Of a stretch of DNA of 64,000 nt, positions 7,933 to 32,959 are shown piece by piece. The stretch covers positions 288,001 to 352,000 of the forward strand of contig CAVYRF010000002.1 of assembly GCA_963770895.1 (NCBI GenBank). The letters run 5' to 3'. A program made the position numbers and the translations under genes. Positions within the stretch are counted from its first letter, which is position 1; each line of letters opens with the position of its first letter. Below the pieces are notes generated by a model. The model saw only the letters and a list, made by a program, of their open reading frames with translations. It did no database searches and had not been told where the DNA came from. This DNA is from an uncultured Acidobacteriota bacterium (GTDB lineage: Bacteria > Acidobacteriota > Thermoanaerobaculia > Multivoradales > UBA5704).

Positions 7933-9648
7933 CTAGGCGATGGTGCCGCCGGGATTGCGCTTGAGCAGCGGCTTGTAGGCCAGCAGCCACAGCCCCGAAT
8001 AGTCGCGCATCAGGCGCATGCGCAGCAGCTGCAGCTGGCGCCCTTCGGTGACGCTCCCCGACAGCACGGCCTCGTCCAGCACGTGGTGGAAGCGCCACAG
8101 GAAGGCGTCGGCGGTGCGCGCGGTCCAGCGGGCGCGGGCGTAGACGATCGAGTCGCCGGTCACCGAAGTCTCGTCGAGGATGCCGGAGATCTCCTGCGCC
8201 TCCTCGTTGATGCGCATGCGCAGGGCGGCGCCCTCCAGCAGGAACTGCTCCAGCTCGCGGTCGCAGCTGGCGCGCCCGTAGAGGCGGCGGTAGGCCAGCA
8301 CTTCGCGCGGCTCGATGCGCAGCGGAAAGACTTCCGGCATCACCACCACCCGGTCGACGGCCATTTCCGCGTCGACGCCGCGCAGGGCATCCACCAGGCG
8401 GCGGTAGTGCTCGCCCAGCAGATCTTCCTGCGCCGCGAGCGGCGACGCGCCGGCGACGCCGGTGGCCCCCGACAGGTGGCCGCTGTCGTCCTGGTACTGG
8501 CGGCGGCTGCCGGGGATGCCGACACCGGTATGGCCGCCGCCGAAGCCGGAATAGCCGGAATCGCCGGCGGCGTGTTCGCCGGCGCCGGCGGAGCCGGACG
8601 ACCTGGACGCGCCGATGCCGCTGGCCGTGCCGCCGCCGAGCGCGCCGGCGCCGGGGCCGCGGCCGGCGGCGGTCAGGCGGGGCAGCAGATCGCGGACGCG
8701 GGCGCGGATCAACGCCAGGTCTTCCAGCTTCAGCTCCTGGCTTTGCAGCTGGGCTTCGAAGCGCTCGATCTCCTGGCGGAACTGCATCAGCTCCTGGTCC
8801 AGCTCGCGATCCAGCGGCACTTCGCGCTCCAGCTCGAAGACGCGCTGGTATTCGGCGACGATGCGCTGCTCTTCCTTGGCGTACAGGTTCTGGATGCGGC
8901 TCTTGAGCGCCAGGTTGGTCTCCTGGATGGCGAGCGCCAGGCCGGGCTCCAGGAAGAGGTTGCCCAGGTCGTGCTTGAGCGCCCGGTAGCGCGGCACCAG
9001 GTCGTGCTCGCTCAGCTGGTCCAGGGTCGAGATTTCGCCGACTTCCTGCCGGATGCCGTCGACTTCGCGCCGCTTGGCCGACACGTAGTCGGCGTCCGGC
9101 GTGGAGGCGCCCAGCATGGCCCACAGCCCCTGGAAGATCTCGCTCAGCCGGCGGTGGTCGCGCAGCCGCGGCTCACCGGTGCGGTCGTCTTCCTCTTCGC
9201 TCAGGCGGGCGAGCAGGAAGTCCACCTTGTCCAGGCGGTCGCTGGGCCAGATCTCCCCCGGCTGCGTGTACAGGTAGAACTTGACCAGCTGGGTGAGAAT
9301 CTTTTCGTCGTAGGTCTTGACGCGGCGGAAGAACTGCCGCAGGTAGTAAGGAGCGACTCTGCTATCCTCTTCGTCCAGGTCTTCGATCAGCTCGCTCAAG
9401 CGGCGATCGATCGATTCCAGCTTGCTGCGCAGGCGCTCGCTTTCGGACGTGTTGTTGAGGCTCTGCGAGATCTCCTTGAGCTCCGCGTAAAGGTTTTGAA
9501 ACTCGACCGAGTGCGCGTCGTTGACGTGCTGCTGCCCGGTCTTGCTGAGGCTCTGCAGGAACTGATGGAACGTCCATGCGGCGCGAAAGCGGTGGGAGGT
9601 ATCGGCGTAGCGGCGATGCAGCGCGCCGAGCTCTTGGACGGTCGTCAT
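7933..9648 (-). CDS. Hypothetical helical/coiled-coil protein (571 aa)
   Basis: Long ORF with GC3-rich codon usage and charged helical composition, Gly-rich linker; 10 bp upstream of kynA; no motif recognised. Confidence 0.8.
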   Translation of the reverse strand: MTTVQELGALHRRYADTSHRFRAAWTFHQFLQSLSKTGQQHVNDAHSVEFQNLYAELKEISQSLNNTSESERLRSKLESIDRRLSELIEDLDEEDSRVAPYYLRQFFRRVKTYDEKILTQLVKFYLYTQPGEIWPSDRLDKVDFLLARLSEEEDDRTGEPRLRDHRRLSEIFQGLWAMLGASTPDADYVSAKRREVDGIRQEVGEISTLDQLSEHDLVPRYRALKHDLGNLFLEPGLALAIQETNLALKSRIQNLYAKEEQRIVAEYQRVFELEREVPLDRELDQELMQFRQEIERFEAQLQSQELKLEDLALIRARVRDLLPRLTAAGRGPGAGALGGGTASGIGASRSSGSAGAGEHAAGDSGYSGFGGGHTGVGIPGSRRQYQDDSGHLSGATGVAGASPLAAQEDLLGEHYRRLVDALRGVDAEMAVDRVVVMPEVFPLRIEPREVLAYRRLYGRASCDRELEQFLLEGAALRMRINEEAQEISGILDETSVTGDSIVYARARWTARTADAFLWRFHHVLDEAVLSGSVTEGRQLQLLRMRLMRDYSGLWLLAYKPLLKRNPGGTIA

Positions 9649-9724
9649 TGCAGGATGGAATCCACGTGCGGAACCAGAAGTCGGGCCAGGATATCACGCC
9701 GCGGCTGCCCTCGATGAGCTGGCG

Positions 9725-10285
9725 ATGCGCGTTTTGATCCCCCAGGCCGACGTCGAAAGGCGGGTGGCCCAGCTGGCCGGCCAGATCGGCCGCGACTATG
9801 CGCTGTGCGGCGCCGGCCCGCGGCCGGCCGACGATCCGTTGATCGCCGTCGGCGTCCTCAAAGGCTCCGTTTTCTTCCTCGCCGACCTGCTCAAGCACCT
9901 CACCCTGCCGGTCGCCGTCGACTTCTTTCAGACCTCCAGCTATGGCAGCGGCGGCGCCGTGCGCGACGACGTGCGCATCCGCAAGGACCTGGACCTGTCG
10001 ATCCGCGGCCGCGACGTGCTGCTGGTCGAAGACATCGTCGACACCGGGTACACCATCCGCACGCTCCTCGACCTGCTACGATTCCGCGGCGCGCGCAGCG
10101 TCCGGCTGTGCACCCTGCTGGACAAGGCGGCGGCGCGCGCGGTCCAGGTGCCGATCGACTATTGCGGCTTCCAGATCGACGATCTCTTCGTGGTGGGCTA
10201 CGGCCTCGACCACGGCGAGCGCTACCGCAACCTCCCGTACATCGCCGTATGGGAACCCGAACCTCCCGCTGCGGCAACCACATAG
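9725..10285 (+). CDS. hpt: Hypoxanthine phosphoribosyltransferase
   Basis: VLKGS.FF.ADL, PRPP motif VLLVEDIVDTG, FVVGYGLD..ERYRNLP. Confidence 0.95.
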   Translation: MRVLIPQADVERRVAQLAGQIGRDYALCGAGPRPADDPLIAVGVLKGSVFFLADLLKHLTLPVAVDFFQTSSYGSGGAVRDDVRIRKDLDLSIRGRDVLLVEDIVDTGYTIRTLLDLLRFRGARSVRLCTLLDKAAARAVQVPIDYCGFQIDDLFVVGYGLDHGERYRNLPYIAVWEPEPPAAATT

Positions 10286-10297
10286 GAGCGCCCAGGC

Positions 10298-10687
10298 ATG
10301 CACTTCCATCACACCGACGACGCCCCCAAGGCGATCGGCCCCTACTCGCAGGCTGTAGCCGACGGCGGCTGGCTCTACACCTCCGGCCAGGTGGGCATGG
10401 ACCCGGCAACCGGCGAGCTGGTGCCCGGCGGCTTCGAGCCCCAGGCCCAGCGCGCCCTGGAAAACCTCAGCCACGTCCTGGCCTCCGCCGGCTGCACCTT
10501 CGCCGACGTCATCAAGGCCAACGTCTTCGTCGTCGACCTGGCGGACTTCCCGCGCCTCAACGCCCTGTACGCCAAGGCCATGGGCGACCATCGCCCGGCC
10601 CGCTCCACCGTCCAGGTCGCCGCCCTCCCCAAGGGCGCCCTGGTCGAAATCGACCTGGTCGCCCGGCTGCCGCAGTCAGGAAGCTAG
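10298..10687 (+). CDS. ridA: RidA/YjgF enamine-imine deaminase
   Basis: APKAIGPYSQA, SGQ, PARSTVQVAALPKGALVEI. Confidence 0.92.
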   Translation: MHFHHTDDAPKAIGPYSQAVADGGWLYTSGQVGMDPATGELVPGGFEPQAQRALENLSHVLASAGCTFADVIKANVFVVDLADFPRLNALYAKAMGDHRPARSTVQVAALPKGALVEIDLVARLPQSGS

Positions 10688-10786
10688 CGCAAGCTGGAGT
10701 CCCGGCCCGGACGCCGGCGGCGGAAGCCGGCGAGCCCTGCGCGCTCCGGGCCAGGCGCGCCGGCGCCGGCGCGGTCGACGCCCGGC

Positions 10787-11914
10787 CTAAGCCTGGGCGG
10801 CGGCGGAGTGGGAGCGGCGGGAGCCGCCGTTGCCGCTACCGCTGCCCCACAGCTGCCGCAGGCGGGCGATCGCCGTTTCGATCTGCTGCCGGCTGACGTC
10901 GCGGTGGGTGACCATGCGCGCTTCGTCCGGGCTGACCGGCGAGGCCAGCACGCCCGCGGCGCGAAGGCGGGCCACGCACGCCGCCAGCGGGCCCTCGGCG
11001 GGAGGGGCGCCGTCGCCGAACAGGCGGGCCGTCGGCCGGAACACCACGACGTTGGTGCGCACCGCCGCCAGGTCGATCTCGATGCCCGGCAGCTCGGCCA
11101 GGGCCGCCGCCAGCATCGCCGCGTGGACGTGATCGTCGGCCAGCCGCGCCGGCCCCTTGCGCAGCGCCACCAGCCCCGCCGCGGCCAGCACCCCCGCCTG
11201 GCGCATGCCGCCGCCCAGCATCCGGCGCACCCGCCGCGCCTCGTCGATCAGCCCCCGGCCACCGCACAGCATCGACCCCACCGGCGCCCCCAGCCCCTTG
11301 GACAGGCACACCATCACCGAATCGAAGCCGGCCGCGAGCGCCGGCACCGGCGTGCCCAGGGCCGTCGCGGCGTTCCAGATCCGCGCCCCGTCCAGGTGCA
11401 CCGGCAGCTGGTGGCGGCGCGCCACCGCCAGCAGCGCATCGGTCAGCGGCCGCTCGTAGACGCTGCCGCCCGCCAGGTTGTGACTGTTCTCCAACACCAG
11501 CAACCCGGTGCGCGACCGGTACGACACGTTGGGCGCGATCGCCGCCTCGACCGCCGCCGGGTGCAACAGCCCCTGCGGCGACGCGAGCGGCCGCGGCAGC
11601 AACCCCGAAAGCGCCGCCATCGCCCCCATCTCGAACACGAAGATATGGCTGCGGCTGTCGCACAGCACCTCGCTGCCGGGCCTGGCAAGCAGGTGCAGCG
11701 CGATCTGGTTGCCCATCATCCCGCTCGGCACGAACAGCGACGCCTCGTGCCCCAGCGCCGCCGCCGCCTCCTCCTCCAGCAGCCGCACCGTGGGGTCCTC
11801 GCCATACACGTCGTCCCCCACCTCCGCGCCCGCCATCGCCCGCCGCATCTCCTCGTCGGGCTTGGTCACCGTATCCGACCGCAGATCGATCGGCGCCGCC
11901 GCAACGTCGCTCAT
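10787..11914 (-). CDS. ltaE: Low-specificity L-threonine aldolase
   Basis: DLRSDTVT, GDDVYGEDP, HLDGAR, CLSKGLGAPVGS, GGGMRQAG. Confidence 0.93.
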   Translation of the reverse strand: MSDVAAAPIDLRSDTVTKPDEEMRRAMAGAEVGDDVYGEDPTVRLLEEEAAAALGHEASLFVPSGMMGNQIALHLLARPGSEVLCDSRSHIFVFEMGAMAALSGLLPRPLASPQGLLHPAAVEAAIAPNVSYRSRTGLLVLENSHNLAGGSVYERPLTDALLAVARRHQLPVHLDGARIWNAATALGTPVPALAAGFDSVMVCLSKGLGAPVGSMLCGGRGLIDEARRVRRMLGGGMRQAGVLAAAGLVALRKGPARLADDHVHAAMLAAALAELPGIEIDLAAVRTNVVVFRPTARLFGDGAPPAEGPLAACVARLRAAGVLASPVSPDEARMVTHRDVSRQQIETAIARLRQLWGSGSGNGGSRRSHSAAAQA

Positions 11915-29770: not shown

Positions 29771-29953
29771 AGCTCAGGCAGGCGGCGGGGGCGTCTGCCC
29801 CGCGGCGTCTGCCGCGATCTGCTCTTGCTGGCGTTCGGGCACCGTGCTATCACCGGATCCACCGCCTCGCAGCAATGGACACTCCGGCGCCCACACGGTG
29901 CGCCGTCGGTTCGTCCGCAACCCGCAAGGAGAGCAGAGATGAAAGGGACGACG

Positions 29954-30451
29954 ATGCACAAGCGAGATGCGGCCGGAAGCCGTCGGGGCCACCGGATGAT
30001 CCTGGCCGTCGCGGCGGGCCTGCTGGTTGCAGCGGCGGGGACAATCCAGGCATCCGCCGCTCCTGCCGGCGCCGGCGCGGCGGCGGGCGCGGATGTCGGC
30101 TGTCCCGCCTCGGTTTCCGTGCGTCAGGCGGCAACCGCACCGGCGGGCTGGGCGGTGGACTACGACAAGAAGGCCAACGACCTGACCATGGTGACCTTCT
30201 TCGAAGGGCCGCCGGCGGAGCTGGCGTCGCTGGTCTACGACGAGCAGACGTCCAAGGGTGGCGAGATCCGGGCCGTCTGGCGTTTCCCTCCAGGGAGCAA
30301 GGGGATCTGGATGTCCTGCGCCTACGACGGCACCCGCGCGGTCCTGTCGCGCCAGCTGCCCGCATCCGTGCGGACCTGCACCGTGCGGTACGACAAGGCG
30401 ACGGCCTCCAGCAGCGGCCTTCCCAGCATCAAGGGAATCGAGTGTCGATAG
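29954..30451 (+). CDS. Secreted STY0301-family-like protein (putative amidase-effector immunity type)
   Basis: Signal peptide then CP..V.V.Q....P.GW, FFEGPP.ELASL, W.F......IWMSCAY..T...LSR.LP.....C; start at 29954 or 29939. Confidence 0.7.
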   Translation: MHKRDAAGSRRGHRMILAVAAGLLVAAAGTIQASAAPAGAGAAAGADVGCPASVSVRQAATAPAGWAVDYDKKANDLTMVTFFEGPPAELASLVYDEQTSKGGEIRAVWRFPPGSKGIWMSCAYDGTRAVLSRQLPASVRTCTVRYDKATASSSGLPSIKGIECR

Positions 30452-30517: not shown

Positions 30518-30564
30518 GGCGCAGCGGAGATTGGTCTCCCAACCTTTAAAGAAAGGCACCCTTC

Positions 30565-30738
30565 ATGCGCTCGACCCGCACCCGCAGGACCCTCAAGCTG
30601 CACCGGGAAACGCTCCACCTGTTGACCGACATTGACCTCGCCAGAGCCGCCACAGGCGCCGCGCAGACGGGTGTGACCGCCTGCCCGGTGGGCACCACGA
30701 AGCTCGTTTGCTGCACTCTGAAGATCCCCTGCGCCTAG
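30565..30738 (+). CDS. RiPP (lanthipeptide-like) precursor peptide, 57 aa
   Basis: MRSTRTRRTLKLHRETLHLLTDIDLARAATGA-AQTGVTACPVGTTKLVCCTLKIPCA*; GAAAGG Shine-Dalgarno; LxLxRETL leader, GA cleavage-like site, Thr/Cys-rich core; below the ORF-track length cutoff. Confidence 0.8.
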   Translation: MRSTRTRRTLKLHRETLHLLTDIDLARAATGAAQTGVTACPVGTTKLVCCTLKIPCA

Positions 30739-30745
30739 GCGCAGG
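30728..30745 (+). terminator. Perfect 18-bp palindrome over the peptide stop codon
   Basis: cctgcgcctaggcgcagg; only a short T tract follows. Confidence 0.4.
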
Positions 30746-31045
30746 TTCCTGCGCGCCCACTTGCGTCTCGCCGGCGCGCGCCCGCCGGCGGGGCGCAGTG
30801 ACGCAGCGGTACCAAACGCATTCAAGCAGGCCGGTCACTTTGCGCTGATTCGCCCGAGGATTCCGGCGCGGGGTAGCGTGCCGTCTCGAAGTCCCGCACG
30901 GCAGGTCTTGCCACAAGGCAGGCGGCTCGCCCTGCGGGCTGGCCAACCCTTTCGCCGCGGGCCGGTCCGGCGTAGCGCGCGCTGATGCAGTGGCGCGGCG
31001 GCGGCGGCGCCGGTGATAAATTTGGCGGCCGGAGGAGACGATGCC

Positions 31046-32959
31046 ATGCGGACTGCGGCGAAGCGACGGCGTGTCGTGGCGGGAGCGGCCTGGGCGGTTG
31101 CGGTGCTGGGAACCGTGGGAGCGCTGGGAGCGTTCGCAGGCACGGCTTGGGGAGCGGCGAGGGTGGCACGGGCGACACCGGCGGACACCGGGGCCGCGGC
31201 GCAGGCCGGAGGGCGTATGACGGAGGCGGCGGTGCCTGGCGAATGGTTGACGCCGGCGGAGGCGGCGGGGTTCGAGGCGACGCCGGATTATGCGGCGACG
31301 ATGGCGTTTCTGCGGCGGGTGGGCGAGCGGCTCCCGGAGATGCGGCTCGGGAGCTTCGGCAGGTCGGCGGCGGGGCGGGACATGCCGGTGGTGATCGTGT
31401 CGCGCGAGCGGGAGTTCACGCCGGCGGCGGCGCGGCAGGCGGGGCGGCCGGTGGTGCTGATCCAGAACAGCATCCATTCCGGCGAGATCGACGGCAAGGA
31501 CGCCTGCCTGATGATCCTGCGCGACCTCGCGCTGGGGCGGCGGCGGGAGCTGCTGGACGTGGCGACTCTGGTCATCGTGCCGATCTACAACGTCGACGGG
31601 CACGAACGGATCTCGCGCTACAACCGGCCCAACCAGGACGGGCCGCACCAGGGGATGGGATTTCGCACCACCACCGCCGGCCTGGACCTGAATCGCGACT
31701 ACGTGAAGGTGGTGTCGCCCGAGGCGCGGGCGATGGTCGGGCTGATCGGCGCCTGGCGGCCGGACCTGTTCGTCGACAACCACGTCACCGACGGCGTGGA
31801 CCACGACTGGGTGCTCACCTGGTCCTGGACCGAGGCACCGCAGCTGGCGGCGCCGCTGGACGCGTGGATGCGCACCCATATGCCGGCGGCGATGGCGGCA
31901 ACCGAGAAGGCAGGCCACCGCACCGGGCCCTATGTGGACCTGAAGGACGGCACCGATCCATCGCAAGGCTTCAGCTCGTGGGTGGCGGGCGCGCGGTTCA
32001 CCACCGGCTACCTGCCGCTGCGCAACGTGCCGGCGGTGCTGATCGAGACGCTCTCCTACAAGCCCTACAAGGAACGGGTGCTGGCGACGCGCGACTTCCT
32101 GCTGTCGCTGATCGCCGAGGTGGGCAAGGACGGCGCCGGCCTGCGCCGCGCGCACTCCCTGGCCGATGCGGCCACCGTGGCGGCGGGAGCGCCGCACGCC
32201 GCCGCCTCGCCGCTGACGCTCAACTTTGACGAGAGCCCGGCCGCCGACCGCATCCGTCTGCCGCTCTACGCCACCAGCCTGGAAACGTCGCAGGTGAGCG
32301 GCCGGCCGCTGCTGCGCTACCAGCGCGGCACGGTGCACGAAATCGAGGTGCCGTGGTACCACGGCTCGCGGGCGACGCTCACCGTGCCGCGGCCGCGTGG
32401 CTACCTGGTGCTCCCCGGCTGGCCGCAGATCGAAGAGCGGCTGCGCGCCCAGGGGCTGCGCGTGCTACAGCTGACGGTGCCGGCCGACCTGGACGTGGAA
32501 GCCATGCGTGCGGCCAATCCCCACTTTGCCGCGGCGACCTACCAGGGCCTGACGCGGGTCAGCGCCGCGGTGACCCGCCGCGCCGAGCGCCACCACGTGC
32601 CCGCCGGAGCGCTGTGGGTGCCCGCCGACCAGCCGGACTTCGCCGTCGCGGCGCAGCTCCTGGAGCCGGACGCCGACGATTCGCTGCTGTCGTGGGGGCT
32701 GCTGTCGACGATCTTCGAACACAAGGAGGCGATCTCGCCGTGGGTCCTGGAGGACCGCGCCGCCGAGCTGCTGCGCGACCCCGCCGTCGCCGCCGAATGG
32801 CGCCAGGCGCTCGCCGATCCGAAGTTGGCCGCCGACCCCCAGGCGCGCTACATGTGGTGGTTCCGCCACACGCCCTGGTGGGACGACACCGTGGGCCTGG
32901 TCCCGATCTACCGCGTCATGGCTCCGCCGGAGCTGCAGACGCAACCCTGGCAGCCCTGA
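31046..32959 (+). CDS. Secreted M14 family zinc carboxypeptidase
   Basis: IHSGEIDG, YNVDGHE, LDLNRD, DNH; signal peptide; GGAGGAG upstream. Confidence 0.9.
   Translation: MRTAAKRRRVVAGAAWAVAVLGTVGALGAFAGTAWGAARVARATPADTGAAAQAGGRMTEAAVPGEWLTPAEAAGFEATPDYAATMAFLRRVGERLPEMRLGSFGRSAAGRDMPVVIVSREREFTPAAARQAGRPVVLIQNSIHSGEIDGKDACLMILRDLALGRRRELLDVATLVIVPIYNVDGHERISRYNRPNQDGPHQGMGFRTTTAGLDLNRDYVKVVSPEARAMVGLIGAWRPDLFVDNHVTDGVDHDWVLTWSWTEAPQLAAPLDAWMRTHMPAAMAATEKAGHRTGPYVDLKDGTDPSQGFSSWVAGARFTTGYLPLRNVPAVLIETLSYKPYKERVLATRDFLLSLIAEVGKDGAGLRRAHSLADAATVAAGAPHAAASPLTLNFDESPAADRIRLPLYATSLETSQVSGRPLLRYQRGTVHEIEVPWYHGSRATLTVPRPRGYLVLPGWPQIEERLRAQGLRVLQLTVPADLDVEAMRAANPHFAAATYQGLTRVSAAVTRRAERHHVPAGALWVPADQPDFAVAAQLLEPDADDSLLSWGLLSTIFEHKEAISPWVLEDRAAELLRDPAVAAEWRQALADPKLAADPQARYMWWFRHTPWWDDTVGLVPIYRVMAPPELQTQPWQP

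Follow-up and report, generated by a model that had tools for sequence, protein, structure and literature searches.

A 57-residue gene belongs to a large dispersed family of lanthipeptide-type precursors, probably of class I and modified in trans

A short open reading frame (ORF) at positions 30565..30738 (+) of the window, the 64,000-nt stretch of DNA that was analysed (G000:C2:288001-352000, from genome G000, which comprises 8.16 Mb in three contigs), is not a lone orphan but one of ~80-90 dispersed paralogues that share a leader of the form MKKxxxK-LxLx(R/K)ETLxxL...A(G)G, followed by hypervariable cores rich in Cys, Thr and Ser. The encoded peptide is very probably a class I lanthipeptide precursor (LanA) of the LxLxKx5L type, and the whole family is most likely converted to ring-containing natural products by a single, distant set of enzymes. 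The best explanation, held with somewhat better than even confidence, is a class I counterpart of the prochlorosin arrangement, in which the ORF is the LanA of a dispersed family and is modified in trans by LanB and LanC.

The ORF runs from an ATG start to a TAG stop and encodes 57 amino acids, with exactly the sequence quoted in the first-pass annotation of this DNA, and the Shine-Dalgarno sequence claimed there can be read directly as a GAAAGG motif (30551..30556, +) 8 nt before the ATG. The GC content by codon position is 0.56/0.60/0.88 (GC3 88%) in a genome with a GC content of 70.7%, and with a leader profile built without it the ORF scores 39.6 bits (E = 2.3e-9, rank 48 of 133). Due to the codon-position GC, this leave-one-out profile score and an empty reversed-genome control (see below), the ORF is considered a genuine gene and more than a chance reading frame. 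An identical 57-aa protein (P0001) is on record in the protein collection, and the absence of the ORF from the ORF track is therefore probably a matter of length only, with the ORF falling under the usual 60-aa threshold. When used alone as a query, the peptide retrieved only itself from the protein collection, with no close homologues, and had no match amongst the Pfam and NCBIfam models at E ≤ 1. Near-identical contigs are present in four DNA runs (X1-X4) from 2 studies, with X1, X3, and X4 labelled as soil metagenome. In one low-depth contig of run X2 (organism A), a G>T change at window position 30658 results in A32S, turning GA to GS at the proposed cut site.

Divided as it was in the first-pass annotation, the peptide consists of a 32-aa leader (MRSTRTRRTLKLHRETLHLLTDIDLARAATGA; 30565..30660, +), which contains L10-x-L12-x-R14-x5-L20, and a 25-aa core (AQTGVTACPVGTTKLVCCTLKIPCA; 30661..30735, +), for which the 5 Thr and 4 Cys reported with that same division are confirmed. 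At the end of the leader, the alignment places T30-G31-A32 of this peptide against A-G-G in most paralogues, such that the putative site lacks the GG and may be read as GA, a variant also present in other members of the family, or as TG. A proposed double-glycine-type cut after G31-A32 would set the boundary between leader and core. The N-terminus (MRSTRTRRT), like the TGA where the family has AGG, is atypical for the precursor family. Directly after the stop codon there are two G+C-rich hairpins without a U tail (30739..30800, +), with a predicted folding energy of -45.2 kcal/mol (z = -3.7; 0 of 200 shuffles fold as well), which likely represent a transcript end or a stabiliser. Scans for consensus intrinsic terminators and for consensus sigma-70 promoters each returned 0 sites.

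The ORF occupies a 561-bp gap between an upstream STY0301-family gene (29825..30451; NF042415, 84.9 bits) and a downstream M14 carboxypeptidase-like gene (31013..32959; PF00246, 67.1 bits). As had been stated at first reading, no maturation enzyme is nearby, with the window devoid of matches to LANC_like, Lant_dehydr_N/C (LanB), DUF4135 (LanM), Peptidase_C39, SPASM, and YcaO. The nearest lanthipeptide enzyme, LanM1, is located 12 kb before the start of the window and 42.7 kb from the ORF (45 kb for its LanC domain). A functional link to the downstream M14 peptidase was considered and rejected; in 5 relatives, the ~1.5 kb around the orthologue of the peptidase (39-61% identity) is free of precursors, and this neighbour is probably unrelated to the precursor. 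A mobile cassette was rejected as well, as the 561-bp intergenic stretch is unique in the genome apart from short GC-rich matches. No orthologue of the core was found in the 5 relatives or the protein collection, with the relatives returning leader-level matches only (best E = 8e-4), and the 57-aa precursor appears to be specific to genome G000.

The paralogue family was delineated by both pattern and profile. A regular expression for the leader motif had 76 matches in a six-frame translation of the genome, compared to 11 in the reversed genome, and the matches were mostly small ORFs in which 20-45 residues with abundant Cys, Thr, and Ser come after MKKxxxK-LxLxRETLxxL...AGG. A leader profile built from 51 seeds defined by this expression, including the 57-aa ORF, was used for a second six-frame search of the genome and returned 135 matches at E ≤ 10, 97 at E ≤ 0.01, 90 at E ≤ 1e-3, and 66 at E ≤ 1e-6, while the reversed genome returned 30 at E ≤ 10 and 0 at E ≤ 0.01. 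When the profile was rebuilt without the 57-aa ORF there were 92 matches at E ≤ 1e-3, of which 41 were non-seeds. The dispersed set of precursors that had been postulated from the single ORF was thus recovered once paralogous leaders were sought, and 82 short Cys-rich ORFs remained after filtering (≤95 aa, E < 1e-3, ≥2 Cys). The copies are scattered over three replicons, with 6 of the 97 profile matches occurring within 10 kb of any LanC, LanB, or C39 domain and the other 91 farther away.

Conservation within the family is concentrated in the leader. In an alignment of the 57-aa peptide with 20 paralogues, L10 and E15 are invariant, L12, R14, T16, L17, L20, and L25 are at least 90% conserved, and, except for two Cys columns, all of the conserved columns are in the leader; the peptide keeps every leader position that is at least 90% conserved. 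The putative cores of the family are composed of 15.4% Cys, 14.3% Thr, and 7.7% Ser (median, 6 Ser plus Thr and 4 Cys), while the leaders contain 21 Cys in 2292 residues. The nearest paralogue (C1:2126456-2126626; ~41-44% identity) has the core tail CCSIRVPC, compared to CCTLKIPC in the 57-aa peptide. A Shine-Dalgarno-like motif at -4..-18 precedes 69 of the 76 Met-starting precursors (versus 740 of 5000 random ATGs), and the downstream 80 nt of 18 of the 76 members have folding energies under the 5th percentile for random genome segments. The 76 upstream regions revealed no common promoter motif, with enriched 6-mers such as GGCAC and TTGCG forming no promoter, and a sigma-54 promoter was found in 0 of 76 upstream regions with a strict pattern and 1 of 76 with a relaxed pattern, without excess over random windows. 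Several types of genes recur as neighbours of the precursors, including NRPS, MacB/FtsX permeases, ABC ATPases, FHA-sigma-54 activators, and one family without a Pfam match, from which nothing is concluded.

Beyond this genome, at E ≤ 1e-3, the family profile matched 669 entries of the word-indexed protein collection as well as 8,134 cluster representatives, and the leader type is therefore widespread. The top match to the family profile, a 1447-aa metagenomic protein (P0121), contains nine leader-like stretches in one predicted protein and may be either a mis-called tandem array or a true polyprotein.

Assignment of the leader to class I, as the first-pass annotation had it for LxLx(K/R)ET leaders in general, is supported by both literature and curated models. 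Walker et al. 2020 (PMC7268733) describe class I LanAs of the Bacteroidetes with an LxLxKx5L leader motif, often ending in Gly-Gly, and a C39 protease in the cluster. The leader of the 57-aa peptide, L10-K-L12-H-R14-ETLHL-L20, conforms to the LxLx(K/R)x5L motif. The NCBIfam model NF038153 ('lant_leader_L1a', class I lanthipeptide), with a cut-off of 22 bits, is passed by the metagenomic relatives P0028 (33.6 bits) and P0054 (37.2 bits) and is matched below the cut-off by 11 of 21 members from the same genome (best E = 9.8e-4). The 57-aa peptide itself has no match to this model at E ≤ 1 and does not reach the curated cut-off.

The distribution of the family across related genomes follows LanB. 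Amongst one sample of 151 genomes of the same class, which are interrelated such that the counts are not independent, the precursor family is present in 16, all of which (16/16) possess the LanB domain Lant_dehydr_C, itself present in 20 of the 151 genomes, while the LanM domain DUF4135 is present in 31 of the 151 genomes, including just 6 of the 16 with the precursor family. Precursor counts of at least 31 occur in G041 and G097, from the family of G000, and in G020, from another family of the order, these being lower bounds with up to 43 candidates scored per genome. The proposed large-library arrangement is seen in G000, in two further genera of the same family, and in a single genome from a sister family. 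Genome G041 (100% complete) has at least 35 precursors with exactly one LanB, three LanC, and no LanM. A further genome from the same family, G065, has 0 precursors, and its best Lant_dehydr_N match (2.1e-75) is far weaker than those in G041 (8.3e-171) and G000 (1.1e-165).

In relatives with few copies, the precursors are clustered with their probable enzymes. All four of the low-copy relatives examined (G055, G133, G131, and G039) have PCAT-LanA-LanC-LanB clusters that hold the precursors, with one to seven precursors per genome located between the C39-ABC exporter and LanC-LanB. In G133, tandem precursors with near-identical leaders and cores ending in CC are located between the PCAT and LanC-LanB (G133:C7:27496-28991; L098 ~9297..10792); six of the seven family matches of this genome are on contig C7, four of which were re-found by script. 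Across the loci of LanB relatives in named genomes, 27 of 77 include a family precursor in the flanks that were fetched and the other 50 of 77 do not, a count for which some of the flanks are short and the profile is specific to genome G000. The nearest LanB relatives (60-73% identity) are titled as Thermoanaerobaculia or Acidobacteriota MAGs, and several of the closest lack an adjacent precursor, as does G000.

RiPP maturases, which the first-pass annotation had asked for genome-wide, are encoded elsewhere in genome G000 as one full-length LanB with a LanC, two LanM, two class III/IV-like enzymes, and three C39-ABC exporters. The only full-length LanB (C2:5180050-5183583; Lant_dehydr_N 2-645 of 649, Lant_dehydr_C 1-253 of 255) is convergent with a LanC (LANC_like 7-350 of 350), the pair spanning C2:5178405-5183583, and is situated 4.86 Mb from the ORF on the same contig with no precursor adjoining it. 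Two partial LanB frames were observed, a 925-aa frame with the N-terminal domain only (C2:4507910-4510684) and, at a separate place, a 485-aa frame with Lant_dehydr_C only (C2:3339409-3340281). There are nine stand-alone LanC-like ORFs, including the one adjacent to LanB, of which seven adjoin neither LanB nor a PCAT, and a leader-bearing small ORF adjoins four of the nine. At two LanC-like loci (C1:1579909-1581510 and C2:2707653-2709298), the adjacent small ORF has an 'ETLLPL' leader variant and a Cys-free core, and such cores could not be used in the usual way by a lanthionine cyclase. Amongst the best five of nine C39 matches scanned, three are C39-ABC exporters and two are RHS-repeat proteins. 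One PCAT exporter (C2:2970256-2974515), which shares its locus with a LanC and a GAF-HlyD gene, has 56-59% identity to the PCATs of class I clusters in relatives. The locus of this exporter (C2:2967238-2974619; L205 7238..14619) has GAF-HlyD, PCAT, and LanC in the gene order of those clusters but lacks a LanB, and the position of the LanA in relatives is taken by a divergently oriented gene for a 507-aa secreted protein that contains an HExxH motif and matches no Pfam family. The genome also has five SPASM matches, all far from the ORF, and one YcaO.

Under the proposed mechanism, the single full-length LanB (G000:C2:5180050-5183583) would recognise the leader, glutamylate the Thr of the core, and eliminate glutamate to form dehydrobutyrines, to which a LanC cyclase would add the four Cys, resulting in methyllanthionine rings. 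Candidates for the cyclase are the LanC adjacent to LanB and the eight remaining stand-alone LanC-like genes, and a PCAT, with C2:2970256-2974515 as the best candidate, would cut the leader at G31-A32 during export. This reading supposes that the peptide is expressed and that LanB acts on it in trans, with the ring chemistry and cut site as proposed, and the product may have a role as a secreted antimicrobial or signal. A fold of LanB residues 1-780 with the precursor, in a run without controls, scored 0.06 (mark, 0.32). Several results count against this reading of the ORF, including the NF038153 score, the atypical N-terminus and TGA, the remote location of LanB, the lack of an orthologue of the core, and the 50 of 77 LanB loci without a precursor, along with the proximity of the closest leader to LanM2, the lack of a precursor at the M14 orthologues, and the lack of a shared promoter motif.

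Part of this evidence leaves room for other fates of the peptide. It is unlikely, though this is the least unlikely of the alternatives, that the 57-aa peptide is exported by way of a double-glycine-type leader without being a lanthipeptide, as either a bacteriocin-like peptide, unmodified or disulfide-bonded, or a substrate of another type of enzyme, for example a radical SAM enzyme of the type associated with TIGR04149. Relative P0028 passes the TIGR04149 model as well (26.4 bits; cut-off, 25), the genome has three C39-ABC exporters, two of the LanC-adjacent members have Cys-free cores, and one of the five SPASM-type matches is 2.3 kb from a family member; however, the SPASM-bearing ORF in question (near C1:1842378) has no Pfam match at E ≤ 1e-4, there is no SPASM match near the 57-aa ORF, the cores are rich in Thr and Ser in addition to Cys, and LanB co-occurs in all 16 of the family-bearing genomes. 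Also unlikely, and a little more so, is that the family, or at least the 57-aa peptide, is modified by a class II LanM in the manner of the prochlorosins, with LanM2 (C2:4307702-4310992) or LanM1 (C2:272811-275909) as the responsible enzyme. A family precursor (C2:4304002-4304217), in convergent orientation and with an esterase-like gene in between, is 3.5 kb from LanM2 and its ABC transporter; it has the leader most similar to that of the 57-aa peptide (62% over 29 residues), and no class II-type LanA is near LanM2. Metagenomic loci related to LanM2 have no family-type leader at E ≤ 0.01 (0/10), and three of them (L207, L209, and L210) carry class II-type LanAs while a fourth (L208) carries a partial one; LanM is therefore kept as a minor rival.

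LanM1, the lanthipeptide enzyme nearest to the ORF, has a C-terminal GWCCG motif, which reportedly marks the ProcM-like group, yet an 82-aa LanA of its own lies immediately upstream, with a leader (IRAWKD...HPAG..EL.DEEL..GG) that is the sole one of its kind in the genome and that also occurs beside LanM in G131, G103, and G127. The LanM1 locus (G000:C2:272811-276463; L067 8811..12460) constitutes a class II lanthipeptide locus directly beside NRPS genes. More generally, the LanM enzymes in G000 and its relatives adjoin a different leader type, a family-type leader (E ≤ 0.01) is absent from all seven of the relatives' LanM loci, LanM is present in just six of the 16 family-bearing genomes, and G041 has its precursors (≥35) without any LanM. 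The least probable of the alternatives is that the 57-aa ORF persists as a decaying or silent paralogue whose processing has ceased, for which the atypical N-terminus, the missing canonical GG, the score below the threshold of the curated leader model, and the lack of an orthologue in relatives can be cited. Against decay, the frame is intact with a GC3 of 0.88, a Shine-Dalgarno motif, and structured RNA after the stop, the leader positions that are ≥90% conserved are all kept, the GA variant recurs in other members, and the tail motif of the core is common to the ORF and a paralogue.

Two types of lanthipeptides are amongst the known systems closest to the ORF, read as a class I LanA of a dispersed family modified in trans by LanB and LanC. 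With the class I LanAs of the Bacteroidetes (pinensin family; NF038153), as described in PMC7268733, it shares the leader motif, a putative double-glycine-type site, C39 exporters in clusters, and cores with Cys and Ser/Thr, and the precursors in genomes related to G000 are, as there, associated with a full-length LanB and a LanC. Unlike those LanAs, the 57-aa ORF is unclustered, there are ~80-90 scattered copies, and LanB, LanC, and PCAT are at separate loci in G000; the peptide misses two features of the class I L1a type, in that it does not reach the cut-off of the curated model and has no LanB or LanC beside it. The prochlorosins and SyncA peptides (modified by ProcM and SyncM, class II, in marine picocyanobacteria) have in common with the family many dispersed precursors, a conserved leader, hypervariable cores, and few synthetases, with 79 SyncA substrates given for SyncM in PMC9872173. 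Unlike the prochlorosins, there was no match to a Nif11/NHLP-type leader (the 57-aa peptide and 21 aligned members against NCBIfam and Pfam, E ≤ 10), and the enzyme that co-occurs with the G000 family is a tRNA-dependent LanB with a separate LanC, not a LanM. The likeness to prochlorosins drawn in the first-pass annotation thus stands for the architecture and fails for the enzyme class, for which the evidence points to LanB/LanC.

Two further systems resemble the family in part. The tha/the clusters of the Thermoanaerobaculia, as presented in a recent report (Nature 2026, PMC13083261), comprise ThaA, ThaM, and the GMC oxidoreductase ThaO, with Cys-rich precursors proven by experiment to be modified by a LanM and a thiazole-forming GMC oxidase. 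These systems are probably from the same bacterial class and also have Cys-rich cores, but differ from the G000 family in being clustered, of class II, and equipped with a GMC oxidase that forms thiazoles; amongst the ORFs scanned beside the two LanM genes of G000, none encoded a GMC enzyme. The GG-leader peptides of TIGR04149, modified by radical SAM enzymes in the Bacteroidota, have a similar N-terminal leader of the KKLxLxKETL type ending in GG. Unlike these, the 57-aa peptide has no match to the model and no radical SAM/SPASM gene nearby, and from genome to genome the family goes with LanB.

Natural lanthipeptide libraries in which one enzyme serves many substrates are known from class II, with ProcM and SyncM as the examples, and are used in peptide engineering. 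No account of a dispersed library of class I precursors emerged from a search of the literature, with subscription-only papers outside its scope. If the proposed arrangement is true, a class I LanB that accepts ~90 natural cores would be a new promiscuous catalyst, and the family would supply an existing collection of scaffolds rich in Cys and Thr from an uncultured lineage of soil bacteria. Cluster-based genome mining misses most of the precursors in such genomes, with 91 of the 97 leader matches here separated from the nearest LanB, LanC, or C39 domain by over 10 kb. At the level of the lineage, it is possible, with a chance slightly short of even, that bacteria which are probably Thermoanaerobaculia evolved a prochlorosin-like system of class I, consisting of one LanB acting in trans, stand-alone LanCs, a detached PCAT, and dozens to ~90 precursors, some of which may move as two-gene units of LanA and LanC. 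Class I enzymes would then have acquired substrate-tolerant 'library' biosynthesis independently.
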